A DNA stretch of 64,000 bases from Pseudogymnoascus verrucosus (taxonomy: Eukaryota): the NCBI GenBank assembly GCA_001662655.1, contig KV460206.1; one strand, given 5' to 3'. The notes below the pieces were generated by a model. It ran no database searches and was not told the DNA's origin. It saw only the letters and a program-made list of their open reading frames with translations. Every line of letters begins with the position of its first letter. The first letter of the stretch is position 1. Both the position numbers and the translations under genes were made by a program. Below, one piece after another: positions 2,083 through 29,135 of this stretch.

Positions 2083-3682
2083 TCAAACTAATCCCATCCT
2101 TAGCAATTTATTGCCTAGTTCTAAGAAATAATAATCTGCATACACTAGGCCATGATCGCTGTAGCGAAATATCGCGAACTCATTGTTATTTGCCGTTGCA
2201 TTCTTTAATATCGATGCCCAATCGGGCTCGGCGACTTCGATCTTGCCAGAGGCTGCATTGACTTTAAGTGGTGCTAGATCTGTCGCGAGGGAGAGATCGA
2301 CAGTATCTTTGACGATGTGCCGCACTGCATCCAGATAAGGTGATCTCTCGGTAGCAAGTTGCTGGTGAAGGATCAGTAAGCCGTTAGCAGCGATCATGCC
2401 AGCGGATGTATCTCGCAATAAGGACGGCTCATTGTCGTCGAAATCCCACAGTGGCACATATGGGTGGTGGTGCGTCGCGGATGCAAGCTGCTTCAAGAAG
2501 TGATCAGACAATGCGGTGGCTGCTTGCAGGATCGCGGGATCTTTGGTCCAGGCGTACGTCTGGGCGAAGCCGAGGATGCCCCATGCTTGGCCACTACAGC
2601 AGTCCATGGTCAGAACGAAAAGGCGTATAATGGGGCCTCATACGTACCGACTCCATGTTGACTTGTCCTTGTATCCCTGATGTGTGAACTGTCGCTGAAT
2701 AGCGCCTGTTTGAGGATGGAAATTGCACACATGGAAACTCGAGCCGTCAGGTCGAATGATGGCTCTCGCAACAGCGTGTGCATGCGCAGTAGCGATGTTG
2801 ATGTATCGCTGATTACCTGTGTGATGGCCAGCGTAGTAGAGAAGGTCGAGATCTGCACACATCAATCAGCATCTCACAATCGATATTAAAGTGCGCGTGA
2901 TGGAAAATGCATACTGCACATGCTATCAATGATAACTAAGAAGTTCTCTTCCTTGTCCGTGATGCTGTAGCGATTGCTAAACTGTTTATCCCAGCTCCTA
3001 ATTGCGCCCACTCGCTCATCATACCGTGATGCTAGACTCTCGGCAGCGGTCAAGATGGACTTGAAGCTTCGCGCATTGCCTGTCAACTCCCAATCAAGTC
3101 GCAGCGCGGGCATGATGATGAACCCAATATCGTGCGTGTTTCGTCGAAGCGCCATACTATGCAGTGGTTCGGACCATATTTGACATAGGTCAAGGAGCTG
3201 CTCGTGCAAATTTGTGCGGTCGATCTCAGGGTCGGAAATGGGGAAGTTTTGGGGAAATCTGACACTCCGCTCGAGCAAAGTGTACACACTGCCAGGGAAA
3301 AACCCACATGTCCAGAAGGTGGCTTCACGGCTTATATATTTACCAGCTGTTTCGCCTGAGGGGAGGACGTGTTCGGGAAAGCCCTATGAATAGGTTCAGT
3401 CGGTCTGGATACGGCAATTCAAGTTGGAGTACTTACCCCAGCTGGCGAAAGATGGGCAGCAGTCCTCCAGATCTTGCCGGCTCGTGACTCGCCGAACAAC
3501 TTCTGCATATCGACGTCTAGCTGCTTGGTGCGTGCAACGGGGGAGAGGGGATTTTCTTGCGTTTCGAATACCAGCGAGGAACTCCCATTTGAGGTGATAT
3601 TGCCGCTGCCATTGAGGTGACCGACTAAAGCGTTCGAATTTCCACGCTCTGATTCGGATGAAGGTGGATCTGCCACAGCCAT
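2083..3682 (-). CDS. GH88 unsaturated glucuronyl hydrolase, multi-exon, no signal peptide
   Basis: Spliced pieces give WTCGFFPGS, THDIGF, IIDSM, STWSRGQAWG, RDTSA and YADYYFLE, motifs of GH88/UGL. Confidence 0.85.
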
Positions 3683-4369
3683 TATATCTGGTGCAGTGAC
3701 GCAAGGTAGTATTATAATCAATGTCGATTTCAATATCTGTTTCTAGTCACTATCGCTCCCTAAACGCAGTGTATAATGGAACAACTGCATTGTTCGGAGG
3801 TATCACCGGGTTATATACGTTGATATATGCCATAATTATCTATACAGTAATAAATTTATTGCCTAATTCACCTACCATACCCGTGCTGGAACTGTAAAGG
3901 ACACATCTTGCAGAGCCAAGGAGAAGATGGCTCCGTCATCCCTGTGCGGGGCAGCCATATCCAACCCCTTTGGATGGGAAGGTCGCTTTGGAGAGGTGGG
4001 TGAATCGTCGGCCGATCAATATGCGCTTTGCGGCTCTCCCATTTCAGTTGATGTTAATTCATGTTGTGTCTGTACGTAGTAGGTGGGATAATTATAGCGG
4101 GATATTCGGGATGTTCAAGCCCGGCCGATCATCGCGCCGATGCCCGTTGCCCCAGAGAGAGAGTCGCGCTTCCCACACTGAACCACAGCCAATTGCCAAT
4201 TGCCCCACCAAAGTCTTTCCCCATTTCACATATGAGCACAACAGCGCACGAAGAACCCCAGTAGGAAAAGACTGTCGATGTATAAACTAGAGTTTATGAA
4301 ATATAGACATCGACGAGAACAAATATAAAATAGAGAAGAGGGCCGCATTGAAAATTCAGCTACAGCCGC

Positions 4370-6322
4370 ATGCAATATATATCTGAATCTGTCGTTACAG
4401 AGGCCACCAACATGGCCATCGACTCTAGCCCAATGCCACAATCCTGCTTTAATCCCCTTGCCGGGAATCCTCACAAAACCCGCGACGATATAATCGCTGC
4501 TGTTCATACCCTCTTTAATCCATTGCTGCCCGCTTTCTCTGCAGGCAGGGCGCGCGTACAGCTCGATTCATCAGGCTCAACCTGGGACCGCGCCGCCTGC
4601 GATTTGGAAGGATTCGCGCGTCCCCTCTTCGGACTTGTACCTCTCGCCGCAGGCGGATCCCACTTTGAGCATTGGGACATATATCGTGAGGGCCTGAAAA
4701 ACGGTACTAACCCAGCACACCCGGAATACTGGGGCCCGGTCACGGACATGGATCAGCGACATGTTGAAGCCACAGCTCTTGGATATGCATTACTCGTCGT
4801 TCCACAGCACGTCTGGGACCCCTTCGATGAGACTACAAAGAAAAATGTTGCCGACTGGTTGATTGAAAGCCGGAATACAAAACACGCGAATAATAACCAC
4901 AAGTTCTTCCGAGTTGTGGTCGATCTTGGGCTTGAGAAAGTCGGAGTCGCGGTTGATCAAAGCGGCACGGAACAATATCTCCAAGACCTGGAAGAGATGT
5001 ATGTTGGCGAGGGCTGGTTCCGTGATAATGGCAATATAGAGGATTCCCGACGGCTTGATTGGTATAACGCCTTCGCATGGCACTACTACGGACTCCTCTA
5101 CGCCGTGCATCGTCCTGAGGACCAGGCTCGTAGCGCTCGATTCCGGGAACGAGCGCGGCTGTATGCCCAGCATCTTGTTCATTGGTATGCGGATAGTGGT
5201 GCCAATGTGCCCTATGGGCGAAGCCTGATCTATCGCCAGGCGACAGCTGCATTCTGGGGGGCGTTGGCTGTCGCCAACGAGGAGGTCCTGCCTTGGGGTG
5301 TGCTTAAGGGCTTATACCTGCGAAACCTGCGATGGTGGGCTTCGCAACCTATCTGTCGACGCGACGACGGCCTTCTGACTTTGGGATACGCCTACCCGAA
5401 TCAACTGCCGACTGAGCGCTACTGCTCGACCGGTTCGCCATGGTGGTCGATGAAGGCCTTTGCACCCTTGGCTCTTTCAGCAGACCACCCCTTCTGGACA
5501 GCGGACGAACTACCCATGCCCAGCAGATCTCCAGTATATGCAGACCCAACTGCAGGAATGGTCTTCACACACCAGCAAAGTCATACCGTGATGCTGGTGT
5601 CGGGCCCAGGCACTACGCAGATGATGAGAGGCGTGCCGGAGAAATACTTCAAGTTTGCGTACTCTTCTCGCTACGGATTCAGCGTGGAGAGCGATGCTTT
5701 GGCCTTCAATCAAGCCGTATTCGATAGCATGATTGGCTTCAGCGATGACGGGAAGCACTATCGTGTGCGCGAACATGTTAATACTGCTGCCCTGGCGGGA
5801 GACGTTCTCTTTTCAACCTGGACACCATGGAGCGATGTCACGGTTGAAACATGGATCATACCAAGTGGAGCATGGCACCTTCGTGTCCATCGCATCACTT
5901 CTCTACGGTCCCTTCAAACGATAGAAGGTGGCTTCGCCGCCCCTCGCACGGATTTTGATGCTGACCAAAGGTTTGAGGTAGGTTCCTCGGCGTATGTGGT
6001 GAGCAAACTGGGCGACTTTAGCGGTATTCTCGACGATTCGCCTCACGAACGGCTTGCTAGAGTCAATGCTCCTCATGGAAACACTAGTTTGATGTTTCCC
6101 CGGACTTTGATTCCGCAGCTCCTCGGGAACGTGGAGGCGAACGTACCAGCTGTATTTGCGAGTGCTATTCTGGCGGGTCCCGATGTGCAAGCGCTGTTGC
6201 AGACGTGGACTAGTCCTCCAAAGATTCCGACAGTAGAAGAGCTGGAGAAGCTAGTGGAAGAAAGGGGAGTCACGATCAAGATTACAGAGGACTACAATCC
6301 GACGCGTCAATGGTACCCTTAA
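4370..6322 (+). CDS. DUF2264 (GH154-related) protein, intronless, 650 aa
   Basis: LEGFARPLFG, PEYWG, GRSLIYR, Y.STGSPWW, KFAYSS.YGFSV motifs typical of DUF2264; divergent from GH88. Confidence 0.8.
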   Translation: MQYISESVVTEATNMAIDSSPMPQSCFNPLAGNPHKTRDDIIAAVHTLFNPLLPAFSAGRARVQLDSSGSTWDRAACDLEGFARPLFGLVPLAAGGSHFEHWDIYREGLKNGTNPAHPEYWGPVTDMDQRHVEATALGYALLVVPQHVWDPFDETTKKNVADWLIESRNTKHANNNHKFFRVVVDLGLEKVGVAVDQSGTEQYLQDLEEMYVGEGWFRDNGNIEDSRRLDWYNAFAWHYYGLLYAVHRPEDQARSARFRERARLYAQHLVHWYADSGANVPYGRSLIYRQATAAFWGALAVANEEVLPWGVLKGLYLRNLRWWASQPICRRDDGLLTLGYAYPNQLPTERYCSTGSPWWSMKAFAPLALSADHPFWTADELPMPSRSPVYADPTAGMVFTHQQSHTVMLVSGPGTTQMMRGVPEKYFKFAYSSRYGFSVESDALAFNQAVFDSMIGFSDDGKHYRVREHVNTAALAGDVLFSTWTPWSDVTVETWIIPSGAWHLRVHRITSLRSLQTIEGGFAAPRTDFDADQRFEVGSSAYVVSKLGDFSGILDDSPHERLARVNAPHGNTSLMFPRTLIPQLLGNVEANVPAVFASAILAGPDVQALLQTWTSPPKIPTVEELEKLVEERGVTIKITEDYNPTRQWYP

Positions 6323-7557
6323 CTTTGCCTAGATATCATTAGAAAACATGTCATGTATTTCGTGGTCTTACATCTAAGTGGCATAAAGACTTCTGTAAGG
6401 CCTAATTACCGGAATTGAGTTCTATTGATTAGCTACCTGACCTACATATTATATACTGAGCTAACTTATATCTTATATAACCTGGTTTCCATAACAGGCC
6501 ACAAGCGTTGCATCCTAATAGTACGTGTAAGCCACTCTAGAAAGTTGAATTGAGACCACTCGGCATTTCGCTCGGCCACAGTGCCCATATCACGCTTTCA
6601 GACAAAACGAAACTTTCAATACTCAACATATTATAGACACTGTATTCAATTTAAACGTCAGGTTGCCCATTTGAATTACCATTACTTGCACTGGTGTATC
6701 GTTGAGGTATAGTCGGTAAGTAGGGTTCATTGGTGGAAAAACAACTAAAGTAGCTCGGCTGACTAACCGAGTCGACGTCGTTGGAAAGCGGGGAAAGCTG
6801 CATTTCCCCGGATTCTTCACTTAGTCTCTTAACTTACCATAAGATCTCTTGGTAAGAAATTAAGTAAGCAATATAGGAGGTTGAAACAACTGAATTCGCG
6901 ACTCTAATAACAGCACTATGTAGGCTCTATATATACACATGTAAACCCCTTCTAAGAGGGCTTTATACCCTCTAATCCTCATATATATCCACTTGATAAA
7001 CTATAACAAGTTATTGAGCCGCGTTACGAAGTCTAGGCTTCGCTGATCAATATGTTTGCACGATACGTATATCCCTTTTAACCAGGGGTCGCAGCACAAT
7101 CTGTTGGGGGAAACGGACATTCCCGTGGGATACGGTAGGCTTTTACGCCCAAAATGACAGTTTTCCCCAGGGAATTGTCCCAGCTTCCCGGTCGGCTTGC
7201 GAGTAAGACAGTGGCACCATACTATTGGAAGCCACTGACTCAAGCCCAGCTGAGCCCAGGAAGCCCAGCTCGTCAGGGTTTTGGGGGTTTCCCCCAGGCC
7301 TACAAATAGCGTACGTAGGCCCGTAGATTAGGTAGGAATTCAATTGATCTATATACCCTAGTTACTGTATTCTACTGTGAAGCTTCTGCTCCGTTGCCCG
7401 AAGGATTGATTACGGTAGTCGGAGATTACCACACAAGTTCGTGTGTGGTTCCCCGCATTCTGCAATTACCTTCAACACAATCCTGCACTCCAATTCTGCG
7501 CGTGACCATAACTCTATTTGAACGAGCTTGGAGTTGAAAAAAGGCTCAAGGTACTCA

Positions 7558-10489
7558 ATGATGCGACCTACAATCCTTCCAGACTCCGATGAGGCGATTA
7601 CGGATCAAGACCCAGAGCAATGGAGGTTGTCCCGGGTCACAGAAGAGACCACCGCATGCCAGTCATGTCGGCATCGAAAGTTAAAGTGCTCTCGTGAAAC
7701 GCCTTCCTGCTCTCAATGCTCCCGACTGAGTGCGTTTCTGTATCCATGGTTGATATGGCACAGGACTGACGATTGAAGCGTGCCCTTGCGTGTACGATAA
7801 GAAACGGCAGAAGCCCGGCCTGAAGAACGGCGCGATCGAGGGTCTCAATAGACGAATTGGTCGGCCACTCATGCAAATACTCATTGGCTCCAGTAGCTGA
7901 CACTCTATAGGTGTCTTAGAGAGGCTTATAGTCAACGGTAGTGGCGAGGAAACGGGGCCAGCGCCCCTGGGAGCTGGATCCCACGGCTGCATCTACCATG
8001 CAGCACTCCTTATCACCAATTCAATGGGTGGAGATATCGGCGGCCGTAACGGATGTCTTGACGAAGCAATGTTGCCCGATTGCAATTTAGCAAGAAACCC
8101 TTTAACAGAGCTAGGGAAATCCAACCATACAACGCTAGAAGCAAATAGCGCCAAGAGACAGAGAATCGATTCGCCGGGTCCTACATTTGACGATCAGCTC
8201 ACATCATTACCTTCAGAGCATATTTTGGACTTGGTCTTCCAGGTATATTTTATGAAGATCCATCCATGGCTGCCCTGTATTCATCAGCCTAGATTCGAGG
8301 CGCGGCTGAAGGATCCCCAAAACGCGACAAAGTTGACAGTCGTTGTTCATGCCATGATCTGTATCACAATGAAACACCTAAAGCTAGACGATATCCGGCT
8401 AGAGGAGTCAGAGAGAGATCGGCAGGTTCGAGTATCTCGCGATGCAGTCACGCGGATTGCAATGACAAGTATGTCAGTAGAAAGCTTGCAGGCCTTGGTC
8501 ATTGTTGCCTCTGATTATGTACGTTACGGTGTGATAATTGTCGGCCATGCTAATCCCAATTATAGATGGGTGAAGGCAGTCTAGTCAGCGCGTGGCCTAT
8601 TATTGGATCTCTGACAAGGACTGTCGAATATCTGCAGCTCACCATCGAGGTAGATGAGAAACCGCCGCCAGCGCTTCACGGGGCTCTCAGACTGCTGGGA
8701 GATTCGACGAGTTGGGCCGAGACTGAAGAGAGAAGGAGAGTATTCTGGAACGTTTTCATTTTAGACCGGTGTGTTCTCTACAATATTCCTCACTAGTCAT
8801 TATCTGATCAGTGCATAGGCTATGTTCTGTCATCACGGGGTAAGCCGTTCAATCTGACTTGACTGGCTTGAGCAACAACTAACCAATTTAGATGGAGCAC
8901 GAGTCTAACATCCGAAGATGTTTGCCGCCGACTCCCTAGCGATGGCAATATATGGGCCAGAGGCGAGCGAGCTATCACTCCGTATTTTGGAATCTGGAAT
9001 AAATCTGCTGCCAAGATCGGAAACCCAATCACTTTCCACCAGGCGCTCTCTCCGTTGTCTCCTAACGGCTTTGCGACCAAGCTAACTGATACATCTCCCG
9101 CGTCAGAGTCCTTGAATGTAGGCGCATTTGCATATCGAATCGAGGCAACTGAGTCACTGAGCCAGGTGACCTCGTATTTCCTACAACAACCAGTCAACTT
9201 TCATAATAAGCAGGAGGTTCGCAGCTGGTTAACGAGGTTTAAGGAATTAGATCTGAGATTAGTTCAGTATGTCTCCTAACCACTACACTTTGACCAAAGC
9301 CCTGATTCTTATAGCTGGAAAACCTTTCTCCCCCCAAAGTTCAAAGATTCCAATATATCTCATGATCAAGCAGTCGTCACAATGGATCCCAACCTGACTT
9401 TAGCCCACATTACTCACAACGCGTCCATGATCTTACTGCATCAGCACATTGCTTACCCGCCTGCTGAGCTCCGAAATATGGTTCGACTTCCTAGCTCTTG
9501 CAGCGCCGAGACATGCCAGCTCGCCGCAGTTGAGACGTCGTCAATAACCTATAAATTTCTCACATACGGCGGGTCTGAAGTGGCTGTAGCACAGTTCCCT
9601 TTCTGTGCGTTTGTTGCTGCCCGAGTATTACTTGGTGAGTCGTGATGCACTATTTACGGATAGCAATTAATTCAAGCTAGTACACTGGAAAGCTACTGGA
9701 AACAGCCTGACTAATGAGTTCTTTATTCTACTGGAGAGTTTACGGGATATGTCTCGCAGGTGGCAAGGTAATTTATCTACGTCTCCTCATCGTCAGGCGA
9801 GCACCGGTGAAATTGATCAAGGACACCTTGATCTTGCTGCGGAATATGCTGCCTTGCTCGAAGCAATGCACGCAAAGATTCTCAACAAGCCCGACTTGTC
9901 GACCGATAATCTATTCCAATTCAACATTACCTCAGACCTAATAGCGGTCATGGCTCAACCAGTCACGTCACATCACTCGACTGCTTATTCAAGCGACACA
10001 GCTGATGGCTGTGGGCTCTCTACAGCTGTGGATGAAAATGGTATCGTTGATAAAAGCAGCTCCGCTACTACGTGGAGAGCTCCACAAGCAGGAGGTAGCC
10101 ATTGTCCTGCCTTAGATCAATCGTTTAACAACATCAACCCATATGCCAAAAATGACGGCAAACAATCTTACAATCTACTTTCTCCAGAGACAATCTCCTC
10201 AGTACATACCTTTTTGGGTAACGAAAATACGTCAGTATCTGCCATGACAGCGCTGACCAACCTGCACCACACTCGAGGTCAGATGGTCCAGGAACCGATC
10301 GTGGATCCGAGCAGTAACGGTAACATCAGTGTAGGAGATGGAGTGGGCGAAATCGCCGAGGATGACTTGGCCGTCATGTCAAATGGGCTATTTGACCAAA
10401 CGTTTTCTGAATTAGATCGAGTTATCACGCTTGATGGAACGGATTTTAACTTTAATCTAGTTTACTGGAATAGGAATGAGTTTATATAA
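7558..10489 (+). CDS. Zn(II)2Cys6 transcription factor with fungal-specific TF domain, multi-exon
   Basis: [22 protein letters not shown]..(intron)..[24 protein letters not shown]. Confidence 0.9.
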
Positions 10490-10618
10490 GAGGAAGAGTT
10501 TGTATTAAGAGGTACTATTTGTCTTCATAACTCTAAAGTTAATATTTAACCTATATATATTTGCTGTATTTCACTAGTGTACTGTGTAGGTTTATGCTAT
10601 AATAAGTTCAATTCTGTA

Positions 10619-10680
10619 ACGTATTTCACAAGCGAACGAGGCACACAAGCGGGCGAGGCACGAAAACACCAAAATCTAAC
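10619..10680 (+). mobile_element. Orphan Fot1/pogo-like terminal repeat
   Basis: TA|ACGTATTTCACAAGCG start with an internal direct repeat CACAAGCG..CGAGGCAC x2; no partner end seen. Confidence 0.45.
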
Positions 10681-10739
10681 TATTACTACTGCTACTACAC
10701 TGCCACCCTATATAATGACCCTTATTTAATTGCAATTGA

Positions 10740-11714
10740 TTCCTAGTGCCTCTTACACGTACGGGTATTATGTCTAATCTTCTCACATTAGCTATAGTTA
10801 TAGTAGTAATAACTTCTATTATAAAACCTACTTTATTAAAGTTATAGATATCCTACTCTAAGATTCTATATTTTATAACTCTATTTTATATAAGAGAGAA
10901 CTACTCTTAAATTATCTTTAGATCTTTATATTTTACTTGTTTATAATTATACTTCTAACTAAACTTTACTTTGATTTCTATATAACGATTAATGAAGTTA
11001 GTAGTCTAGTTCTTCCTAATAAGGCTCTTACCTTATTTAGACCTTTAGCGTTAACAGCTTTAATGACTATTATAGATGTATGATTGTTAAGGTTGTCTAT
11101 AATCTACTAGTTAGTTAGCATCTATACTTTAATAGACAGTTAGATTATATAAACCTATTTAATTTCTATAGGCATAATAACTTAAGTAGACTTATAGCAC
11201 CTAATTATATAGCTTGTCTCGTTAAAATTCTAGAGGTTCTGTGGCTTAATTTGATATTAAGTTAAGAGTGCATTATACTCTATAAAGAAGGCTTTAAAAT
11301 TAGCTCTATTCTAAGCTTGCTTCTACTAGGTGTTTAAGGATCTTGTACAAATCGTATGGAATTTAGGGTGCGCCTTTAGGAATCGTTGTAGCTAGCGTTA
11401 AGAGGGGGGTAGTTTGCCTAGCTGTAGGTCTATAATAGCCTATAGAATCATAGATCTATCTGTAGGCATTCCGCGAGCCAATTGGTCATATATGAACTAG
11501 CATATTGCAGCTTCCTGCGACGGCGTCAAAAAATTCGATTCTGGCCTCCATGCGCTAGTTGTACAGGCTTTTGTATATGTCGTCAAAGCGTTTCATCGCT
11601 AACCTTGTATTTCGTAGCGACCTAGTTGATTGTATAGGTGTTAGGATGGCTATTATAGAACTCAATTGCATTTGCAAGACGGGTTTTATATTCAGAATCG
11701 CGTTTTGGGGGCAT
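10740..11714 (-). pseudogene. RIP-inactivated Fot1/pogo (Tc1-mariner superfamily) transposase
   Basis: Minus-strand translation from ATG 11714: MPPKRDSEYKTRLANAIEF…ETL*RHI…HGGQNRIFLTPSQEAAIC…R*LQRFLKAHP, then PQNL*NFNETS, the W-N-F-D-E-T-G motif altered by G>A transitions; many in-frame stops. Confidence 0.85.
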
Positions 11715-12856
11715 GCTTGTGGTATTGTGGTGGTATTGAGATGATAATTATGAGGCTACGTGTCAACCACAACTCGCTGTCGCCGCCTACGAGCGAAGCG
11801 AGTGGGTGGACCCGCCAAGTAGACGTTTTAAACAATAAAGATAAAAATGCAGATTCGAGACTCCCTAAGTAAAGTGACTCTGAATACCAGACATGCTCGA
11901 AGTGATACGGAAGGGAGAAAATGCAACATGAGAGCTTCATCTGCTCCCCACCCGCAGACGCCTTGAAATCCTCTCCATTATCACCTCTTGGATCAACAGA
12001 ATCCAAGATAATGCAAAGCATGGGGTTTTAGTGTCAGATACCTATGTTACTTTTTTAAACGGTATCCAAATGGGTATGATTTTAACAGAGATGGTTGTTA
12101 TGGAGACCTAGCGACTTAATAAACCGAATACGACGTAGCCAGCCAATCGCGAGTGGATTACAGTAATTAGACGACTTAGGTCTCAAGATTGTCTAATGCT
12201 ACCATTATAATCATAAAAGAACAACATCTTCTCTCTGCACGGTTTGAGGGGTATACCCCGCGAGTGGGTACGTGCAGTGTGTGAGAATTGCTGGGCACCA
12301 AATTATTTTAGATTTGAATAGGTTTAGCACTTCAATCAGCATCTAGAGTGTTGTACGATTGGAGGAAAACGTTTGTCTTTCTAAGATGGCCAGAGAGCCT
12401 CTTTTTCGGTTAACTTCTGGCATATCGCCATGGAAACGAGATTATTACACTCTACATGCGGCTTATTCCTGTTCGTTCTTGGAACCTCCTGATGTAAGCT
12501 ATTTCTCACCATTGTAGCGGTTAATGAGTTAACCCAAAGAGAAAGGAGAGGGTATTATAATATCTGCGACGATAATTGTTCCACTCTACTGGCTACTTAC
12601 AGGCAGTGAAAATTAGGCAAAGTAGGGAGCAGGTAGATAGACACTGTTATCACTATGCCACGCGAGCGACAATTGATTCATATTATGAGTAGGAATAGCA
12701 AATTGAATTCAATCAGCCTTTTTTGAGTTGGAATATCAATTTTAAACTACTAGATAAGTTCTAACGAGAGGCCACGCAAAAGCTGATTGAAACTGAGCAA
12801 GCCAAGGTCAAACCCATTCTCACTTGTAGCACCACTCTTTCCTTGCCGGGGATATC

Positions 12857-13633
12857 TCAGTGCTGCACAGAGACTGCAAAAAAATGCACTTCTGAAGAAG
12901 CATTTCCTTGGTTGTAGTTCCCGGCCTTGAAATAACTCAACGGCGGGTTCAAGTTTCCCAAACTAATTGTCTTCGCAGCGCCACCATTAATACCCAAGGT
13001 CAGGATACTATTCTCATACCGAATATCATAGCTGAAAGTCGTCTTTAAAGGAATATTTCCAAAAGACGTGTAGTATTCAGGACCACCCGATCGTGACTTG
13101 TGGACTCCCATAGTAAGGTCTCCTTTCGAGTTATAATAAAGCTTTGCCACTGGATAGTTTGATACGCTCGAGTCCATGTGGATCTGGCCAACTATTGTGC
13201 CATGTTTGCTGTCATCGGCCTTAGGTACAGAGAGGGTGGCGCTGAGTCGGTTTTTAGCAGCCTTCGGGTCCCAGCTCGAAGGATTCTCTTCGCGAAGCTC
13301 CGTTCGACAGTACTTGGTGTTTGGAGTTGTCACGCATCCGGAGGACGAAGGTGAACCAGGAACTTTCATGACCATAGCGCCATCTCCACTCTCCGTGAAG
13401 AAGTAATCATGTCCCGGATCCTGGTATCCAGAGCACCCTTCAAGGGCTGACTCGGAAATCGTCGTCGGGCTGCCCGGACTGCCAATGGGAAGTTGAAGTT
13501 CCCAAGTAGAAAAGTCAAAGTTGCCACCAGGAGCGCAGCTGGGATTGAGAGCCCGAGTCTCCAATGCGTAGCCTAGAACCACCGCACCAAAAGCGAGCGA
13601 GAATGCAAGAGTTGACAGGGCAAGACGAGACAT
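12857..13633 (-). CDS. Secreted polysaccharide lyase family 7 (alginate/glucuronan lyase), intronless
   Basis: N-terminal signal peptide; all three PL7 motifs RTELRE, QIH and YFKAGNYNQ. Confidence 0.92.
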   Translation of the reverse strand: MSRLALSTLAFSLAFGAVVLGYALETRALNPSCAPGGNFDFSTWELQLPIGSPGSPTTISESALEGCSGYQDPGHDYFFTESGDGAMVMKVPGSPSSSGCVTTPNTKYCRTELREENPSSWDPKAAKNRLSATLSVPKADDSKHGTIVGQIHMDSSVSNYPVAKLYYNSKGDLTMGVHKSRSGGPEYYTSFGNIPLKTTFSYDIRYENSILTLGINGGAAKTISLGNLNPPLSYFKAGNYNQGNASSEVHFFAVSVQH

Positions 13634-18851: not shown

Positions 18852-18890
18852 CAGCAAGCATCTTGAACCTTGAATTTTGTCATCATCATC

Positions 18891-19781
18891 ATGAAACCCT
18901 TCTGGCTGCCCTTCATCAAGTCTCAAAGCGATGACTGGAGCGCAGTGTTAGATCGTAAGGAGCGCAAAAGGATACAAGATCGACTTTCACAGAGAGCAAG
19001 ACGTAATTACTCACGTTTCATTTCCAACATATAAAACTAACGTGAGCTGCTTCTAGGCCGGAAACTGGCTGGGAAAGGAGCAGACCTACTTTGCAGATCA
19101 TGGGAGTCAGCCCGTGACATAGATCTCTCAGAAGTGGGGGGTTCTAATTCTGACCACACCACACAAGCTCTGGGCAATGAAGAAAATCTGGTCTCTGCAA
19201 ATGAAACTCGACCAGGATACAGCTGTGCTGTGTCTCCTACCCATTTCGAACCTCTGCCATCGGCATCAATCGACCTTCAGACCTCAAATTCACTACCACT
19301 TCCGGATCCCGCTATTGACAGTAAATGGCTGGCCCTCTATTCTATGGACTCATTGCATGCCTTCACTACTCTTGGCCGTATGCTCCAGCTAGTCTGTATT
19401 GGATCGCCACAGCCCTATCTAAGCCCCCATCCATCAGCGTCAACTCCTGCAACGCTTGCTCCAACATTGCAGCAACAGCTGGTTCTGCACCATACCTTTG
19501 TGGACATCTTACCTTTTCCGTCGCTTCGTGATAGTATTATCGGTGCACTGCAAATCACGGATCAGGACACACTTTGTAAGGACTTGCCACACGACGAGTG
19601 GCGGCTTTGGGGCTCTGAGCCATGGGACCCTTGTGGGTGGGAGATTAGTGAGGTATTCGTGAAAAAATGGTGGTGGCTGTTAGATCAGGAGATGTTGGAG
19701 ATGACGAATTTTTGGAGGAGGCAGCAGGGTATGTGTCCCTTGGTGTTAGCAGACATCAGGGAAAATTTTAGGACTAGTTAA
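18891..19781 (+). CDS. bZIP-like transcription factor with DUF3425 domain, 2 exons
   Basis: Exon 1 DDWSAVLDRKERKRIQDRLSQRARR spliced (gtaatt…ctaac…tag) in frame to the ORF with HHTFVDILPFPSLRD, WG..PWDP..WEIS..FVKKWWWLL, TNFWR. Confidence 0.85.
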
Positions 19782-20474: not shown

Positions 20475-21466
20475 ATGTCATTTCCCAAGACCTTGAGTCT
20501 TCTCTCCTGTACAGCTATTGTAACGGGCGGCACCCGTGGCATTGGCAAAGGAATTTCGATGGAGCTAGCCCGCCGAGGAGCTTCAGTTGCACTAGTCTAT
20601 GGGAATCCTGCCCGTGCCTCCGATGCTGCCTCAACAGTCGCCGAGATCGTGGCTCTTAACAAAGACATCAAAGCAATTGCAATCTGCGCCGATTTAAGGG
20701 ACAGAGAATCTCCAAAACGAATCGTGGAGGAGACCCTTAGAGCTCTGGGCACAGAAAAGATTGATATTCTAGGTACGTGGCGCTTCGCTGGCCTCTTTTA
20801 GTTCTGCTGGCTTACGCGCAATGAAACATAGTTCACAATGCAGCAAACCCAGAGACAACACCAACGCCGAACGTGACACATGAAATATTTGATACCGTTA
20901 TGGATGTCGGCTTGCGTGCCCCTTTTTTCCTGACACAAGCTGCACAGCCGTATATGCACCCAGGCAGTCGTATCATCTTCATATCTAGCACTTCAGCCCG
21001 ATCGCCTTCACCGGGAATTACACTACCGCTATATGCAGCAAGCAAAGCCGCAGGGGAAAGCTTGGTACGGAGTTGGGCGTTCGAGGTTCGCCAGCTACTT
21101 CCTGAGCCTATAGATTTGCAATGTTGCAACTGACCATGCGTAGTTTGGACACTCACACGGTATAACCGTTAACGGTGAGGACCTACTTTTACAATTGATT
21201 TGGGCACGTTCTAGAATAAGCAAAGTTTGAAGCTGACTGTCTTTCTAGCCGTCTCTGTAGCCTATGTCGAGACTGAAGCTGTTTCCGTGGTTCCCGCTGC
21301 TCAGCTAGAAGCGTACCGTATGGCGAGTGCCAAAATTACTGCTGCAGCACCGCGCCCTGGAACCCCAGATGATATTGCGCAGATTGTGGCCTTTTTGGCT
21401 AGTGATAGTGCAAGGTGGGTGACGGGAAGCACAGTGAGTGCTAATGGTGGGCGACTCTTATTCTAA
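20475..21466 (+). CDS. Short-chain dehydrogenase/reductase, multi-exon
   Basis: TGGTRGIG cofactor motif, YAASK catalytic motif, GTPDDIAQIVAFLAS…WVTG C-terminus. Confidence 0.9.
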
Positions 21467-21599
21467 AGACGTTCAAATGAATGATAAAGCATTTCACGGA
21501 CTGAACATAATTCTTTAGAAAATCATTTTTAAACTTGAAATTTCATTAAGAGATTATTGCGTTTAATACGCAGAAATGTTGTTTAATTTGTAGCGAGAC

Positions 21600-23100: not shown

Positions 23101-24309
23101 TTATATAACCTTGCCATTAAACCTCTCGACCTTGCTAATCGACACATCATCAAGCTGTTCAACTGCTGGACGCAGTGCCCATAGGTCTGTTCCAGGTGGC
23201 GCTTGTAATTTGCTGACAGCCTCTTCTGTTGTCGGATTTCCAGCATCAGCTGAAGCATGAATAACATCAGACGCAGCATATGCTGCAAAGCTCATCTCTG
23301 GGAATTTCCATTGACTCGTACAAGTAGCAGCGGGAACAATAAAATCAATTCCAGCATGGATGCTTTGACCTTCAGGACCTTTGTAGCCCCAGAGATCGAT
23401 TCCGACTTTCGTACCCATTGCAGCCGCTCGTGTGTATGCAACAAGGTTGAAGACAGAGTAATGCCAGCTGCGTGTCCGTACAAGTTCCTTAGGTTGTGAG
23501 CCATCGGCATTTATATCGTCTTTGATACGGGATTGTATCAAGAGTAACTCCTGCTTTGCTATTTCAGCCTTGCCGACAAAAAGTGCTATGCCAGCTTTTT
23601 GCATGATCGCGAATGTGCCATGATTATTTTCGGCAGCACTTTCTATAATCCCAAAGGTGCTATTCGACAGCCAATCTAGGAATTCTAGGTTCCACTGGTG
23701 GAATCCTTCCATGTCACTTCGGGTCCAATCAGAAGCCCCCACCCCTAGAATAGCAGCAGCATCTAAAACGCTAGTATAGCCTTGTGCAAAATCAATGATC
23801 CCAATGTGTCGTCCTGTATTAACCCCAGGGATAATTTGTGCGTGGTTCAGATTCGGTCTCATACGCGTCTCCTCTGACAGGAACCAGGTGCGGATAATAT
23901 TGCTAGCATGTTTTGCATAAGCTTCTCTCTCGGTATAATACCACGCAAGGCTGAGAATCAAGGAGGCTTGAAAGAGGTTCCTGCGGCCTGCATGATCTGT
24001 GTAATTATCTACTTCGGGATTTCGTTCTCCATCGCGTTGCATGTAAGGAACGCCGATAGAACTGCCAGAGGGCCACCAGTATGGGGCCTGGCTAGCGTAG
24101 TCGTGTTTATCGCCGCTTGGTGGATATATAGCTTTAGTTGTGACCGACCAGGGTCCTTGTTTTAACCACTTATCTGCTTGTGCAGTCAAGTAACTCAATC
24201 GAGTCTTCAGTTGAGCATCGCCAAGTTTGATCAGCAACTTCGCCTTCAGGAGCCTGGATCCATCTAAGACGATGGTGTTTGGAACCACATCTTTGTTAGG
24301 TTGTGCCAT
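23101..24309 (-). CDS. PL38-type (Alginate_lyase PF05426 fold) lyase, no signal peptide, intronless
   Basis: DKHDYASQAPYWWP, RDGERNPE, M.PNLNHAQ, NNHGT, QPKEL.RTRSWHYS; first ATG gives MAQPNKDVVP with no hydrophobic leader. Confidence 0.85.
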   Translation of the reverse strand: MAQPNKDVVPNTIVLDGSRLLKAKLLIKLGDAQLKTRLSYLTAQADKWLKQGPWSVTTKAIYPPSGDKHDYASQAPYWWPSGSSIGVPYMQRDGERNPEVDNYTDHAGRRNLFQASLILSLAWYYTEREAYAKHASNIIRTWFLSEETRMRPNLNHAQIIPGVNTGRHIGIIDFAQGYTSVLDAAAILGVGASDWTRSDMEGFHQWNLEFLDWLSNSTFGIIESAAENNHGTFAIMQKAGIALFVGKAEIAKQELLLIQSRIKDDINADGSQPKELVRTRSWHYSVFNLVAYTRAAAMGTKVGIDLWGYKGPEGQSIHAGIDFIVPAATCTSQWKFPEMSFAAYAASDVIHASADAGNPTTEEAVSKLQAPPGTDLWALRPAVEQLDDVSISKVERFNGKVI

Positions 24310-24710: not shown

Positions 24711-24747
24711 CGGAATCTCGGAATCTCGGAATCTCGGAATCTCGGAA
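24711..24747. promoter_or_regulatory. (CGGAATCT)x4 + CGGAA array in PL38/AKR divergent promoter
   Basis: Tandem CGG triplets at 8-bp period; CGG is the usual Zn2Cys6 half-site (function inferred). Confidence 0.55.
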
Positions 24748-24975
24748 CATTGTTCGGACAAGCAAATCCGAGCCAATTCTCTACCATGAGTGAACTAGCA
24801 GGGTTACACAACCGGACACTCCCATTCGCCTAGTATAATGCGGTCCGTGGCGAGTACTGCGACTGCTGACCTTATAGAAGGTCGGATTTCCTATTATCGC
24901 TCTCTGTCTAATCCTGCTTATCTCTCCGCCGTCTTAATTCTATGATTCCTCCCTAGAAAATCTAAATAAATCACG

Positions 24976-26228
24976 ATGGCTTTGAATCGCTCCTTCAAAT
25001 TGAATTCGGGACACAGTATCCCGGCTGTGGGCCTTGGGACATGGCAGTCAAAACCAAACGAGGTCAAACATGCTGTTGTAGCAGCGCTGAAAGCTGGATA
25101 TCGCCATATCGACGCTGCAGCTGCATACGGTAATGAGATAGAGGTTGGAGAGGGGATTAAGGCGTCAGGGGTAAATAGGAAGGACATTTTTGTAAGCAGT
25201 TTAAAGTTCGGGTATAGTTAAGGTACGTCACTTACATTACAATCCGGTAGATCACGAGCAAACTCTGGAATACGGACCACAAGCACGAAGATGTCGAACG
25301 CGCCCTCGATACTACATTGAAAGAGCTTCAAACGGATTATCTTGATCTGTATCTGGTATGAATTATACTTCGCACACAATTTTTTCGTCTTTTTTTGGGG
25401 GCGAAAGCTAATAAATCTCGCAAGATCCATTGGCCGGTTGCATTTGCCCATTCCTCTCAACGATTTCCGGTTAATCCAAGCTCAGGTCGAATCCAAGTCA
25501 TCGATGTTCCTATAGCTGATACATGGAAGGCCATGGAAGCTCTGGTTAAAAAGGGAAAGGTTAGAAGTATTGGTGTTAGCAATTTCACACGAGCCAGGAT
25601 CGAAAATCTTTTATCCAGGTAGGGTTAGTTTGCTCTACTTTCTGGGCAATTGTTGATAAGAGTAAACAGCGCAGTTATTCCGCCTGCAGTCAACCAAGTC
25701 GAGGCACATCCGTATTTCCAGCAGCCAGAACTCTTAGAATGGCTAAATAAAATGGTAAGTTCCTCGAAGATCTCCTGTATGGAAGGCTGACCGGAGACAG
25801 AACATCCTTGTGGAAGCGTACAGCCCACTTGGAAATAATATATACAGTCTCCCAAGGGCTGTAGACGATCCAGACATTGTTTCTCTAGCCAAGGATCTCA
25901 ACAGGCAACCCGCTCAGCTTTTGATCAGCTGGGCTGTCCAAAGAGGCACTGTCGTGCTCCCAAAGAGTATCACCGAATCGCGTATCAAAGACAACTTTCA
26001 AGGTAAGAGTGTTAAGTAGCCCAATCGCTGGATTAAATTTGACACTTTGCCCTAGACTTTAAACTTCCCCAGGATGCATTTGATAAAATCACGGCGATGA
26101 ATCGAAACTGCAGGTACAACTTCCCAGCTCGTTGGGGTGTGGATGTTTTCAGTGAGGTCAGCCAAGAGAGCTTAGAGAAAAGTGTAGAAGAGTGGTTGGA
26201 GGGACAGAGAAAGTTGAAAGTAACCTAG
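24976..26228 (+). CDS. Aldo-keto reductase (NADP-dependent), multi-exon
   Basis: GLGTWQ, GYRHID.A..YGNE, TSKLWN, DLYLIHWP, IGVSNF, LPKS. Confidence 0.92.
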
Positions 26229-27189: not shown

Positions 27190-27795
27190 TCTGGCAGCTT
27201 AGATCACGTGCGAGATATCCAGGTAGAGCATGAACAGAGCGACGGAATACAATATATTTGCGTTGGAAGCGCAAGCCATGTTCTCATCATGGGCAAATCT
27301 TCCGTCTGTCCGAGGGAATTGCCCTCGAGAGCTGGCCAATCTTTCCACCAATAACCAATATCTTCAACTCGTCACTCTAAGTCCAACTGCAGTCCTTCCG
27401 TGGCAGCAAGGCCCAGCTTGTTGTAAAACCGGCATTTGGTGGCAGCAGATTATCCGAGCTCTGCATGAGTTCTCGGCATGGTGGTTACCGGTGACAAAGT
27501 ATGGGAGTCAGCGGAAGGGTGTCCTTGCGGGCATTCAAGCTCGCCCATTCAAGCTATTCTATTGAACTGAATCCGACATCTCGGAACTTGATGAGTTCTG
27601 TCCGCGTCTATCGCGTAGTCCATGTTGTCAATTGGTGGGAAATTATCTAATATCGCGATTGAGCTAGCTTAATGAGTCAGCTACCCTGGTTCGTTAGAGT
27701 CCCCTGCAAAATAACTTGCACATCCCCGCATCTCATATTTAACAGCAGTTCCTGGTTGCAGTCCTGTTCTAGTTGTTATTTCGTTAATGGACAGA

Positions 27796-29135
27796 ATGGT
27801 GCAAATAGAACAGTAAATATTCACTTATCCCTCTATGTCGGCCGTTTCATCTAACACCGTAACCATAGCCTCTCGTGGACCCGGGCTGTCATCGCGAGCT
27901 TGTTGCTCGCTCCTCTTGCGGGTGCATCCGCTACCCCACCTGTCCCCAGCAATCACGCATTGAACCAGCGGGGACTATGGCCAGATACTGCAGTATTGGA
28001 TGGCTTTAGATTGTTTGAAACCAAGCTTCTGCTTAAGCTTGGATTGCCCAACCTAAAGACTGCGTTAAATCATTTAACTGCACAAGCGGATGACTGGCTC
28101 ACAAAAGGACCTTATACTGTTACAAGTAAGACAATTGTCCCCCCAGGTGGTGACAAGCATGACTATGCCAGTCAAGCACCATACTGGTGGCCAAACCCTG
28201 ATACTGCGGACGGCTGTCCTTATCTCCAACGCGACGGAATTCGCAATCCCGAAGTTGATAACTACACGGATCATGGAGACCGAGGGGATATGTTCCAGTC
28301 TTCATATATCCTTAGTCTCGCTTGGTACTACACTGGGAAGAAAGAATATGCAACGCATGCTGCTGGTATTCTTCGCACCTGGTTCTTGACCCCTGAGACA
28401 CGCATGAATCCGAATCTTAACCACGCACAAATCATTCCTTGTAAGAATACTGGACGAGCTATTGGAATCATCGATTTCTCGCAACAATATACGGCCGTGT
28501 TAGATGCTGCTGCCATCCTAGCCTCTGGTGCACCTGGCTGGACTAAAACGGACCAGAGCAGCTTCCAGCAGTGGAACGTTGAGTTCCTAGATTGGCTCGC
28601 GAACAGCCCATTCGGCATCGAGGAAAGTGCAGCCGCGAATAACCACGGCACATTTGCGTCTATGCAGAAGGCAGGCATTGCCGTTTTCGTTGGAAATAAA
28701 ACTGTCGCCAAGCAAGAAGCTGTCGGGATGAAGGCTCGTATCGATGCCTATATCAGTCCCAACGGCTCGCAGCCTTTGGAACTCATCCGAACTCGCAGCT
28801 GGCATTACTCCACGTTCGATCTCGTTGCATATACACGGATAGCTGACATTGGCAAGAAAGTCGGCGTCGATCTGTGGAAGTACAAAGGACCCCAGGGTCA
28901 GAGCATCCAGGGCGCTGTTGATTTTATCGTTGCGGGTGCTACTGGCGGAGCAGCCGCCTGGGTATATCCAGAGCTTGAGTTTTATGGTTATGCTGCGAGT
29001 GATATTGTGCATGCCGCAGCTGACGCTGGGAACCTCAAAGCGTTAAAGGCGGTTAGTAAGTTGCAAACACCTCCTGGAGGAGACTTGTGGGCACTTCGCC
29101 CTGCAGTCGAGCAGCTCGATGCTATCTCGAATTAG
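27796..29135 (+). CDS. Secreted PL38-type lyase, paralogue of 23101-24309
   Basis: Exon 27796-27812 + 56-nt intron gives signal peptide MVQIEHLSWTRAVIASLLLAPLAGASA; same DKHDYASQAPYWWP / NNHGT / RTRSWHYS motifs. Confidence 0.88.

Follow-up and report, generated by a model that had tools for sequence, protein, structure and literature searches.

Ten adjoining genes on a contig of the soil fungus Pseudogymnoascus verrucosus (KV460206.1) form a real and probably functional cluster, judging from their sequences, and we consider with moderate confidence that this cluster is catabolic and serves an acidic polysaccharide containing beta-linked glucuronate, most likely beta-1,4-glucuronan. The window, by which we mean the whole stretch of 64,000 nucleotides that was analysed, was searched with Pfam models and against solved structures, and the ends of the coding sequences were determined. 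All ten genes are present and intact, and they lie in the positions and orientations given in a preliminary description of this DNA (Table 1). Five of the genes encode enzymes of polysaccharide breakdown, namely the secreted lyases PL7 and PL38b and, lacking a signal peptide, GH88, DUF2264 and PL38a; the other five encode a sugar porter, a pair of regulators and a pair of reductases. The presence of three divergent pairs was confirmed: the start codons are 687 bp apart for GH88 with DUF2264, 1306 bp for PL7 with the MFS porter and 666 bp for PL38a with the aldo-keto reductase (ATG to ATG). Signal-peptide-like N-termini are found on PL7 and PL38b only: the maximum hydropathy over 10 residues is 2.4 and 2.5 for these two in comparison with 0.5-1.4 for GH88, DUF2264 and PL38a, and this supports the division into secreted and cytosolic enzymes that had been proposed. 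If about a dozen GH88, GH154, PL7 and PL38 genes are assumed among about 10,000 per genome, fewer than 1e-8 ten-gene stretches holding five of them are expected by chance per genome. Pfam searches of the locus gave no SusC/SusD-like pair; the transporter is an MFS sugar porter and the host is a fungus. The locus is therefore not a bacterial polysaccharide utilization locus (PUL) in the strict sense, and the analogy drawn previously holds for its working at most.

Table 1. Genes and intergenic elements of the cluster, with positions in the window
Feature	Position	Strand	Evidence
GH88 unsaturated glucuronyl hydrolase	2083..3682	-	4 exons, no signal peptide
DUF2264 / CAZy 'GH154'-type, predicted beta-D-glucuronate dehydratase	4370..6322	+	single exon, two domains, no signal peptide
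Repeated element, DUF2264-regulator gap	7100..7400	.	word depth, joints, loose ends
Zn2Cys6 / fungal-specific transcription factor	7558..10489	+	several exons; Zn_clus E 5e-8, Fungal_trans E 4e-6
AT-rich repetitive insertion (1227 bp), regulator-PL7 gap	10616..11842	.	absent from relatives, GC 0.38
PL7 lyase, secreted	12857..13633	-	PF08787 E 8e-48, signal-peptide-like N-terminus
MFS sugar porter	14940..16541	+	Sugar_tr E 6e-87
DUF3425 protein, bZIP-like putative regulator	18891..19781	+	PF11905 E 1e-11, basic stretch
Classical SDR	20475..21466	+	3 exons, adh_short/adh_short_C2 on three consecutive ORFs
PL38a lyase	23101..24309	-	single exon, no signal peptide, PF05426 E 2e-82
Tandem CGGAATCT repeat, PL38a<>AKR promoter	24711..24750	.	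four overlapping 16-nt copies, 8-nt period
Aldo-keto reductase (AKR)	24976..26228	+	about 6 exons
PL38b lyase, secreted	27787..29135	+	PF05426 E 2e-88

Comparison with solved structures agrees with the families named previously for PL7, both PL38 proteins and GH88, and the catalytic residues are kept. The GH88 exons were placed at 3682-3437, 3383-2910 and 2862-2086 (the last of these spans a further intron) by tblastn of protein P0001, which is 99% identical to the window GH88 over the last exon. This exon is 99% identical to VE00_08932 of Pseudogymnoascus sp. WSF 3629. P0001 matches the Bacillus unsaturated glucuronyl hydrolase (UGL) 1VD5 over residues 164-401 with an E-value of 2e-38. In this alignment HDIGF and IIDS fall on the UGL Asp positions, showing that both catalytic Asp residues are kept; the first is marked by the D88N mutant entry 2AHF, and we take the pair in the Bacillus enzyme to be D88 and D149. 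The Pfam GH88 model, PF07470, gives P0001 only 16.5 bits (cut-off 26.6), a point against the glucuronan explanation. Three further homologues from fungi that carry a GH88 or glucuronyl hydrolase annotation are likewise below the cut-off (16.7-19.8 bits), and the model appears to be insensitive to the fungal GH88 clade. The assignment to GH88 consequently rests on homology to the solved enzymes.

The gene divergent from GH88 can be assigned to the GH154 type and is predicted to encode a beta-D-glucuronate dehydratase. Its product matches PF10022 (E 6e-116) and PF20938 (E 3e-45); the earlier reading of the sequence gave this gene no function. It aligns with BcGDH (9O4U) with an E-value of 4e-22 as a single sequence and 6e-33 with a profile. 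The accessible part of a 2025 study of Bacteroides caccae shows that GH154 enzymes are beta-D-glucuronate dehydratases, which dehydrate a saturated beta-GlcA residue at the non-reducing end to give an end that GH88 can cleave, and that their genes often co-localize with those of GH88 or GH105 (Alvarez et al., J Biol Chem, PMC12269599). The same text reports that Ala mutants of ten active-site residues of BcGDH (E74, R78, N176, N177, W178, F181, Y229, R285, Y289 and Y354) are inactive, W178A included, and proposes Y289 as the acid and Y229 as the base (PMC12269599). Nine of the ten are identical in the window protein, including Y229, R285 and Y289. The residue corresponding to W178 is H163, and His is also found here in the Talaromyces, Cladophialophora and Umbelopsis homologues (four of the ten aligned sequences). 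Given the inactivity of W178A, His at this position in the fungal dehydratase clade counts against a cluster for glucuronan. Taken with the GH154 assignment, the nine conserved residues suggest that the divergent GH88 and DUF2264 genes encode a two-enzyme exo-cycle. Membership of a family that works with GH88 strengthens the case for a pathway and tilts the likely substrate towards glucuronate polymers and away from alginate.

The PL7 protein matches PF08787 over the whole of the model (positions 1-225 of 225). Among solved structures it is most closely related to a glucuronan lyase, 7NDE (E 2e-57, residues 34-263), whereas matches to solved alginate lyases have E-values of 8e-16 or weaker. 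The conserved motifs of PL7 are R-(S/T)-E-L-R, Q-(I/V)-H and Y-F-K-A-G-x-Y-x-Q, and the translation contains RTELRE, GQIHMD and YFKAGNYNQ. There is Q-I-H where the solved glucuronan lyase has Q-V-F; Q-I-H is typical of alginate lyases, so the enzyme may be active on alginate. Both PL38 proteins are predicted lyases that are nearer to PL38 than to PL5: PL38a matches BoPL38 (8BDQ) with an E-value of 1e-58 and the PL5 lyase A1-III (1HV6) with one of 3e-3. The accessible text on BoPL38, the closest solved PL38, describes an alginate lyase that degrades all three alginate block types and gives its catalytic and substrate-shaping residues as Y91, D108, Q173, E236, N242, H243, R292, H297 and Y298 (10.1101/2024.12.11.627697). 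Each of the nine has an identical counterpart in the PL38a alignment, and the same motifs can be read by eye in the translation of PL38b, which is 67% identical to PL38a. PL38b has a short first exon (27787-27812) followed by an intron (27813-27868) with GTAAAT...CTAAC...TAG, and the spliced N-terminus fits the annotated protein of a relative (P0258).

The porter scores 257.6 bits with TIGR00879, above the cut-off of 237.8. In the Zn2Cys6 gene the Zn_clus match lies in ORF 7522-7773 and the Fungal_trans matches in ORF 7901-8581 (E 5e-4) and ORF 8566-8793 (the match in Table 1); translation starts at the Met at 7558 and the 3' end was inferred from consecutive ORFs. The second regulator had been called a bZIP protein. 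The DUF3425 domain is present and there is a short basic stretch, rich in R/K, in the first exon, but no Pfam bZIP model matches the protein at E up to 1, which qualifies that name. The SDR has generic relatives only (FabG, glucose 1-dehydrogenase and THN reductase); those of the AKR, for which Aldo_ket_red matches on three ORFs were supplemented with exons from three-frame translation, are DkgA and aldose and aldehyde reductases. The generic nature of both reductases is a point against catabolism of glucuronan by the cluster, as is the finding that no KduI-like isomerase was seen at the locus. The two repeat insertions in intergenic regions weigh in the same direction. In each of the four runs, the element upstream of the Zn2Cys6 gene has a word depth 6 to 35 times as great as that of adjacent bins, and many joints and loose ends fall within it. 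At the AT-rich insertion, which has a very high word depth, the contigs of three relatives (X3, X4 and X5) join 10615 straight to 11820 or 11843.

We propose that the ten-gene set would cut up a uronic-acid polysaccharide, import the products and digest them. For the opening step, membership of the enzyme families is observed and we infer the substrate. The MFS sugar porter would import the oligomers, from which the cytosolic GH88 would take off the unsaturated end residue to expose a saturated glucuronate. The GH154-type dehydratase would then turn the exposed residue into a new unsaturated end for GH88 to cut again, and PL38a, having no signal peptide, may assist by splitting oligomers. Between them, GH88 and the dehydratase could dismantle an oligomer residue by residue without a beta-glucuronidase. 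The cycle has been shown for bacterial homologues; here it is suggested by homology, conserved active-site residues and gene linkage. The product, 4-deoxy-L-threo-5-hexosulose uronate, would be reduced by the AKR and/or the SDR, and stereochemistry predicts that reduction of the aldehyde would give 2-keto-3-deoxy-L-galactonate, through which the D-galacturonate pathway of fungi passes. By their position, the Zn2Cys6 and DUF3425 proteins are candidate regulators.

The preliminary description held that unlinked orthologues in other fungi would argue against a cluster; for GH88, DUF2264 and PL38, however, there is linkage. GH88 and DUF2264 are at most two genes apart in five of the six named ascomycetes that have both among the matches. 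Talaromyces proteolyticus has consecutive accessions for GH88, DUF2264 and PL38, and in Cladophialophora chaetospira the locus tags are _009293 (PL38), _009295 (GH88) and _009296 (DUF2264). GH88 adjoins DUF2264 in Escovopsis weberi, and a single gene separates them in two Rasamsonia species. In Hyphodiscus the best GH88 match and DUF2264 are on separate contigs, which speaks against the glucuronan explanation. Like PL38a, the PL38 proteins encoded beside this pair in Talaromyces and Cladophialophora have no signal peptide. The GH88 and PL38 matches are on separate contigs in Xylogone, Zopfia, Periconia and Pseudogymnoascus VKM F-103, so these two genes are linked in two of six named species. 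Further proteins come from contigs of identical length: 13,725 bp for GH88, DUF2264 and PL38, and 34,151 bp and 26,357 bp for DUF2264 and PL38. Contigs of a close relative are collinear with the window at about 98% identity over GH88-DUF2264 (2083-7026) and regulator-PL7-porter (7473-17132). Beyond near-identical strains, conserved linkage is seen among the matches for the core of GH88 and DUF2264 and in part for PL38. In Rhizobiales, 33 of 80 loci have GH88 and DUF2264 in one operon-like row, which consists of a heparinase II/III-like lyase, two ABC permeases, GH88, a MalK-type ATPase, DUF624, a solute-binding protein and DUF2264. Neither PL7 nor PL38 was found in any of the 80 bacterial DUF2264 loci, and this too must be set against the glucuronan explanation.

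It is unlikely that the cluster serves alginate, the polymannuronate/polyguluronate of brown algae or of soil Pseudomonas and Azotobacter. Pfam does name both lyase families 'alginate lyase', the window PL38 keeps the catalytic Tyr and His with which BoPL38 degrades all three block types, PL7 has the Q-I-H motif in place of Q-V-F, and DEH reductases of the SDR and AKR types exist in other organisms. However, the residues attacked by GH88 enzymes and by the GH154-type dehydratase have the glucuronate configuration, and we know of no role for either enzyme in alginate breakdown. Additionally, the E-value of PL7 against the fungal glucuronan lyase is better by about 40 orders of magnitude than that against any of the solved alginate lyases, and what is conserved is a core of GH88, DUF2264 and PL38 rather than lyases alone. 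Glucuronan is favoured over alginate as the substrate.

Nor is it very likely that only the cytosolic core (GH88, DUF2264, PL38a and perhaps the porter) is functional, the other genes being separate neighbours. Such a core would act on imported glucuronate-capped oligosaccharides from bacterial exopolysaccharides, fungal glucuronoxylomannan-type glycans, plant arabinogalactan or glycosaminoglycan-like material. Consistent with this, conservation across fungi is seen for the core alone, the SDR and AKR are generic, the bacterial DUF2264 operons have another lyase family, and one metagenome contig (L002) has a sugar porter adjoining DUF2264 and nothing else recognizable. The founding GH154 member is from an arabinogalactan locus and BcGDH is from a chondroitin locus, so the family serves several glycans. 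Yet the secreted PL7, with a glucuronan lyase as its nearest relative, and the secreted PL38 paralogue (67% identity) are less than 25 kb from the core, which is unlikely to be due to chance, and PL7 is head-to-head with the porter. We regard it as highly improbable that the genes are together by chance or as remnants, with neither shared regulation nor a common pathway. Repeat insertions in two intergenic regions and the weakness of the shared promoter motif would fit such an origin, but none of the ten reading frames is disrupted, the 27 kb hold five genes from four rare families specific to uronates, and linkage of the core is seen again in bacteria and in three classes of ascomycetes.

The accessible text on the chondroitin locus PUL25 of B. 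caccae describes a comparable system, in which GH88 takes off the unsaturated ends left by a lyase and GH154 regenerates such an end on the saturated GlcA thereby exposed (PMC12269599). As in the window, genes for transport and regulation belong to the cluster, and the catalytic Tyr/Arg/Tyr set is common to both. PUL25 has SusC/D-type uptake, periplasmic enzymes, a PL35 lyase, GH109 and chondroitin as its target (PMC12269599), whereas the window has a eukaryote host, PL7/PL38 lyases, an MFS porter and cytosolic enzymes. The window dehydratase also differs from BcGDH in having two domains and His for W178. The Rhizobiales operon, which includes LacI, resembles the window in that a lyase, an importer, GH88 and DUF2264 are in one unit, and its DUF2264 proteins share 50-53% identity with their fungal counterpart. 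It has another lyase family and an ABC importer in place of an MFS porter, and is without PL7/PL38 and reductases. Fungal clusters for sugar-acid catabolism include the D-galacturonate genes (the gaaA/gaaC pair, gatA and GaaR) and the quinate cluster; like the window, they have enzyme genes in divergent pairs, a porter of their own and a regulator of the Zn2Cys6 type. These handle monomers, whereas the window also has enzymes that degrade polymers and oligomers, some of them secreted; its predicted reduction product would feed the galacturonate pathway. Pilgaard et al. reportedly described secreted lyases of four families from Trichoderma parareesei (Appl Environ Microbiol, 2022), and we know of no gene cluster, GH88, GH154, transporter, regulator or reductases from that work. 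In the accessible part of a review, the T. parareesei glucuronan lyase system consists of fungal lyases, including PL7 and PL38 members, that degrade beta-1,4-glucuronan (PMC10512326). Among solved enzymes, the nearest to the window PL7 is the fungal glucuronan lyase 7NDE.

Catabolic gene clusters are already known in fungi, as is every enzyme family at the locus. A fungal cluster of this make-up was said to be undescribed, and full-text literature searches found none. Polymers rich in glucuronate, beta-1,4-glucuronan among them, are present in some fungal walls, bacterial slimes and oxidized cellulose, and to our knowledge their use by fungi beyond secreted lyases is largely undescribed. The locus offers a complete testable route, in which every step has its candidate enzymes and there are candidates for the oligouronate importer and the pathway regulator, and would extend glucuronate removal by a dehydratase plus GH88 from bacteria to eukaryotes. 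Possible uses are enzyme sets that make or degrade polyglucuronates such as cellouronate, and the engineering of uronate use in fungi. Fungal GH154 entries, which are given as 'function unknown' in a preprint survey of CAZymes in lichen fungi (10.64898/2026.07.28.741190), would gain a concrete role.

Finally, we suggest tentatively that the locus may be a mobile, PUL-like fungal 'glucuronan utilisation cluster', in which GH154-type and GH88 enzymes cycle in the cytosol with the aid of an intracellular PL38 and the product is reduced into the galacturonate pathway. If true, no eukaryote would have been known to have a cycle of this kind before. Imported oligoglucuronates would be converted fully to 4-deoxy-L-threo-5-hexosulose uronate and, by the aldehyde reductase of the cluster, to 2-keto-3-deoxy-L-galactonate, giving a new route for glucuronan carbon into the galacturonate pathway. 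The core also seems to have passed from one lineage of fungi to another: in a quick tree the window DUF2264 protein groups with Eurotiales and not with the Leotiomycete Hyphodiscus, and the closest named GH88 matches are also from Eurotiales.

The stretch is fungal DNA from a Pseudogymnoascus: its GC content is 37-57%, introns are present, VE00_08932 of Pseudogymnoascus sp. WSF 3629 matches the last exon of the GH88 gene at 99% identity, and DNA near-identical to the window is present in two sequencing runs; no RNA run with this region is among the 11 runs listed. Stop-to-stop frames of at least 55 residues were translated over the first 33 kb (n=218) and the relevant frames (24 + 97) were scanned against Pfam. 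All ten genes claimed in the preliminary description were recovered with the places and strands it had given them, by Pfam matches of the translated frames or, for GH88, by homology to a solved structure. The gene it had called bZIP is present as a DUF3425 protein that has a short basic stretch but no Pfam bZIP match.

Features of the uronate cluster and its surroundings (positions count along the window)
Feature	Position	Strand	Remarks
GH88	2083-3682	-	no Pfam match from its exons
DUF2264	4370-6322	+	PF10022, E 6e-116; PF20938, E 3e-45
Regulator			Zn_clus / Fungal_trans
PL7	12857-13633	-	PF08787, E 8e-48
Sugar porter	14940-16541	+	E 6e-87; TIGR00879 score exceeds cut-off
DUF3425 protein			Pfam match
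SDR			three exons
PL38a	23101-24309	-	PF05426, E 2e-82
AKR	24976-26228	+	multi-exon
PL38b			PF05426, E 2e-88
Intron of PL38b	27813-27868		56 nt; GTAAAT, CTAAC, TAG
ORF, AKR-PL38b gap	26674-27186	+	171 residues
ORF, AKR-PL38b gap	27227-27562	+	112 residues
TCGGCCG sites	4008-4015, 4118-4128, 13949-13955, 14735-14745, 27838-27844		GH88/DUF2264 and PL7/porter promoters, PL38b 5' end
Repetitive element	~7100-7400		intergenic
Repetitive element	10616-11842		intergenic, AT-rich, 1227 bp
Hexamer array	22290-22422		AAGTAG x 22, perfect; SDR-PL38a gap
Tandem repeat	24711-24750		CGGAATCT, 8-nt period, about five units
Tri3-like acyltransferase	30247-31755	-	directly right of cluster
Mac/hexapeptide acetyltransferase	32491-33140	+	right of cluster
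Phenol hydroxylase	34660-36621	-	second catabolic cluster
Fungal_trans regulator	~39452-39868	-	second catabolic cluster
Catechol dioxygenase	42139-42992	+	second catabolic cluster

The PL38b model requires an intron, and after splicing its N-terminus matches that of P0258, the annotated protein of a relative. A hydrophobic, signal-peptide-like N-terminus is found in PL7 and PL38b only, in agreement with the earlier distinction between a secreted PL38 and one lacking a signal. The two ORFs in the AKR-PL38b gap belong to no Pfam or NCBIfam family and were not counted as genes. The annotation of one relative, P0261, joins the second of these ORFs to the PL38b orthologue; this fusion is probably a mis-prediction.

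P0001, a full-length protein near-identical to the window GH88, scores only 16.5 bits on PF07470 (cut-off 26.6), and three further fungal proteins labelled GH88 or glucuronyl hydrolase by their sources likewise score below the cut-off. In a search of solved structures, however, P0001 matches a Bacillus unsaturated glucuronyl hydrolase (E 2e-38) with both catalytic aspartates kept, and on this ground we accept the assignment to GH88 despite the missed profile threshold. The PL7 and PL38 assignments are borne out by the same kind of search. PL7 is nearest to 7NDE, a fungal enzyme deposited as glucuronan lyase (E 2e-57; best alginate lyase, E 8e-16), and PL38a matches BoPL38 (8BDQ) at E 1e-58 but the PL5 alginate lyase A1-III at just E 3e-3. 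The nine functional residues named for BoPL38 in a preprint on that enzyme (Y91, D108, Q173, E236, N242, H243, R292, H297 and Y298; 10.1101/2024.12.11.627697) are all identical in PL38a in the alignment. PL38b is 67% identical to PL38a and shows the same motifs by eye.

A profile made from the window DUF2264 protein and nine homologues was searched against solved structures and matches three of them: 9O4U and 9NWF, both the beta-D-glucuronic acid dehydratase of Bacteroides caccae (BcGDH, E 6e-33), and a third deposited as beta-galactosidase. The window protein as a single sequence matches BcGDH at E 4e-22. According to Alvarez et al. (J Biol Chem 2025, PMC12269599), the family, named GH154 in CAZy, is not a glycosidase family; BcGDH and BT_3677, the founding member, dehydrate a saturated beta-glucuronate at the non-reducing end, and the 4,5-unsaturated residue so formed is then hydrolysed by GH88. 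The same paper states that GH154 genes frequently adjoin GH88 or GH105 genes, that BT_3677 carries a second domain (the window DUF2264 protein is likewise two-domained), and that alanine mutants of ten BcGDH active-site residues are inactive (PMC12269599). The window protein shares nine of the ten residues named there (E66, R70, N161, N162, F166, Y218, R270, Y274 and Y337, numbered from Met 4412), among them those proposed as acid and base, and the arginine. Where BcGDH has W178, the window protein (H163) and three of the other four aligned fungal sequences carry His; the position is Trp in five Rhizobiales sequences and in Sugiyamaella. The divergent GH88-DUF2264 pair thus reads as an exo-cycle in which GH88 would take off an unsaturated end and the dehydratase would re-create one, the chain shrinking residue by residue.

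Linkage in other fungi was judged from the locus tags, accession numbers and shared contigs of the GH88, DUF2264 and PL38a matches listed. Among these matches, GH88 and DUF2264 are neighbours (within two genes) in five of the six named species: Talaromyces proteolyticus (GH88 KAH8690627, DUF2264 -28, PL38 -29), Cladophialophora chaetospira (PL38 H2200_009293, GH88 _009295, DUF2264 _009296), Escovopsis weberi (DUF2264 KOS18589, GH88 KOS18590), and Rasamsonia emersonii and R. byssochlamydoides, where one gene separates them. In Hyphodiscus hymeniophilus they are on separate contigs. The linkage covers Eurotiomycetes and Sordariomycetes, besides the Leotiomycete of the window. For PL38 and GH88 the named species are another set of six, among the matches listed: the two are linked in Talaromyces and Cladophialophora and on separate contigs in Xylogone, Zopfia, Periconia and Pseudogymnoascus VKM F-103. 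The preliminary description had taken unlinked orthologues in other fungi as evidence against its locus; linkage holds for GH88 with DUF2264 and in part for PL38. Matches on same-sized contigs place GH88, DUF2264 and PL38 together at 13,725 bp, and DUF2264 with PL38 at 34,151 and 26,357 bp. In Talaromyces and Cladophialophora the PL38 linked to the other two has no signal peptide, which indicates that the conserved fungal core is the predicted intracellular trio of GH88, DUF2264 and PL38. In a contig comparison over 2083-22080, contigs of organism C (~98% identity) cover GH88-DUF2264 and, collinearly, the regulator-PL7-porter stretch; as a close relative it adds little independent weight. At ~17.4-21.4 kb, where the DUF3425 regulator and SDR lie, the contigs of two relatives' runs (X4 and X5) give no cover and those of a third (X3) only a trace, with no bridging contig, which speaks neither for nor against the presence of these genes in those relatives.

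The bacterial comparison took in 80 DUF2264 loci, which come entirely or almost entirely from Rhizobiales and hence are non-independent. In 33 of the 80, from Rhizobium, Neorhizobium and Roseibium, a heparinase II/III-like lyase, two ABC permeases, GH88, a MalK-type ATPase, DUF624 and a solute-binding protein stand in a row with DUF2264 last (for example locus L070, 601-11839), in some with a LacI regulator nearby. This operon is probably a uronate-oligosaccharide system. A homologue of the lyase lies within 10 kb of DUF2264 in 41 of the 80 loci. None of the 80 has PL7 or PL38. A metagenome scan with the DUF2264 protein gave two short loci only, one with the DUF2264 gene alone and one with an adjoining sugar-porter fragment and no other recognisable gene.

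Identity to bacterial proteins is unusually high, at 50-53% to Rhizobiales for DUF2264 and 56-58% to Streptomyces for PL38a. In a quick tree the window DUF2264 falls inside a fungal clade (12 Ascomycota and 5 Mucoromycota), where its sister is Talaromyces, not the Leotiomycete Hyphodiscus, and Rasamsonia branches off next. The nearest named GH88 relatives, among the matches listed, are also from Eurotiales. Together these findings hint that the GH88-DUF2264 pair may have moved between fungi and that there may have been an older exchange with bacteria. None of the 120 DUF2264 matches listed is a Pseudogymnoascus-named protein, in contrast with the adjacent GH88 and its 99% match in WSF 3629, and the best named Pseudogymnoascus match of PL38a, among those listed, is 67% identical. 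DUF2264 and PL38a may be either unannotated or absent in the deposited Pseudogymnoascus annotations.

We propose that PL7 and PL38b would be secreted, that the porter would take in unsaturated oligomers and that GH88, the dehydratase and PL38a would break these down in the cytosol. The resulting 4-deoxy-L-threo-5-hexosulose uronate, together with the one free glucuronate that each reducing end leaves, would then be the substrates of the reductases. Judging by stereochemistry, the L-threo aldehyde would be reduced to 3-deoxy-L-threo-hex-2-ulosonate, that is, 2-keto-3-deoxy-L-galactonate, an intermediate of the fungal D-galacturonate pathway. Reduction of the alginate-derived L-erythro compound to 2-keto-3-deoxy-D-gluconate is the known parallel. 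SDR and AKR, searched as single exons (a weak test) against NCBIfam and solved structures, gave generic relatives only; these queries found no KduD- or DEH-reductase-specific match among the matches listed, and no KduI-like gene was seen.

Glucuronan is the favoured substrate of the cluster, because both GH88 and the dehydratase act specifically on glucuronate where characterised, and because the nearest solved relative of PL7 is a glucuronan lyase. Alginate or other glucuronate-capped glycans are a possible alternative. The window PL7 keeps Q-I-H at the site where 7NDE, unlike it, has Q-V-F, and in alginate lyases this His serves as the base for guluronate. PL7 could therefore cleave alginate too, and sequence alone does not decide between the substrates.

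Fungal catabolic clusters, bacterial PULs and every enzyme family found here are already known. No fungal cluster of these families is described in the full-text literature searched, a scope short of most subscription literature and of the main paper on T. parareesei, which accords with the earlier statement that no described cluster of this make-up was known. The term 'DUF2264' is absent from that literature, again with most subscription papers outside it, and the fungal literature on GH154, GH88 and PL38, where examined, names the families just in passing. What is new is the combination of genes, the predicted intracellular core conserved in fungi and the eukaryotic setting of the putative dehydratase/GH88 cycle.

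Leads to shared promoter elements are weak and post hoc. No exact 8- to 10-mer is common to at least four (for 8-mers, at least five) of seven upstream regions. CGG-N13-CGG, the best of 48 CGG-spacer patterns (7 sites against 2.6 expected), is unconvincing as a shared element once multiple testing is considered. TCGGCCGGGCT occurs in two exact copies, one each in the GH88-DUF2264 and PL7-porter promoters; at least two matches with no more than one mismatch arise in 18 of 100 shuffles, and it was rejected as a significant motif. TCGGCCG, which at two sites forms part of TCGGCCGGGCT, has nine matches in the window (5.4 expected; overall counts not above shuffles), six of them lying upstream of cluster genes or at their 5' ends. 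Picked post hoc, it is a lead only. The tandem CGGAATCT repeat lies in the middle of the PL38a-AKR divergent promoter, and with the regular spacing of its CGG triplets it may represent a Zn2Cys6 binding array.

Two repetitive elements lie in cluster intergenic regions, in which no clear terminal repeats were found. Over the larger one, word depth exceeds the single-copy value by a factor of tens. In three other runs, contigs pass from 10615 straight into 11820 or 11843; this strain therefore carries the 1227-bp piece as an insertion.

The 2 kb left of GH88 are AT-rich and hold no ORF of at least 95 residues, and no other carbohydrate-active genes were seen in the window. The two acyl- and acetyltransferase genes to the right have no evident tie to uronate use. 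Further right is a second small catabolic cluster (34660-42992), and housekeeping genes follow to the right of its catechol dioxygenase.
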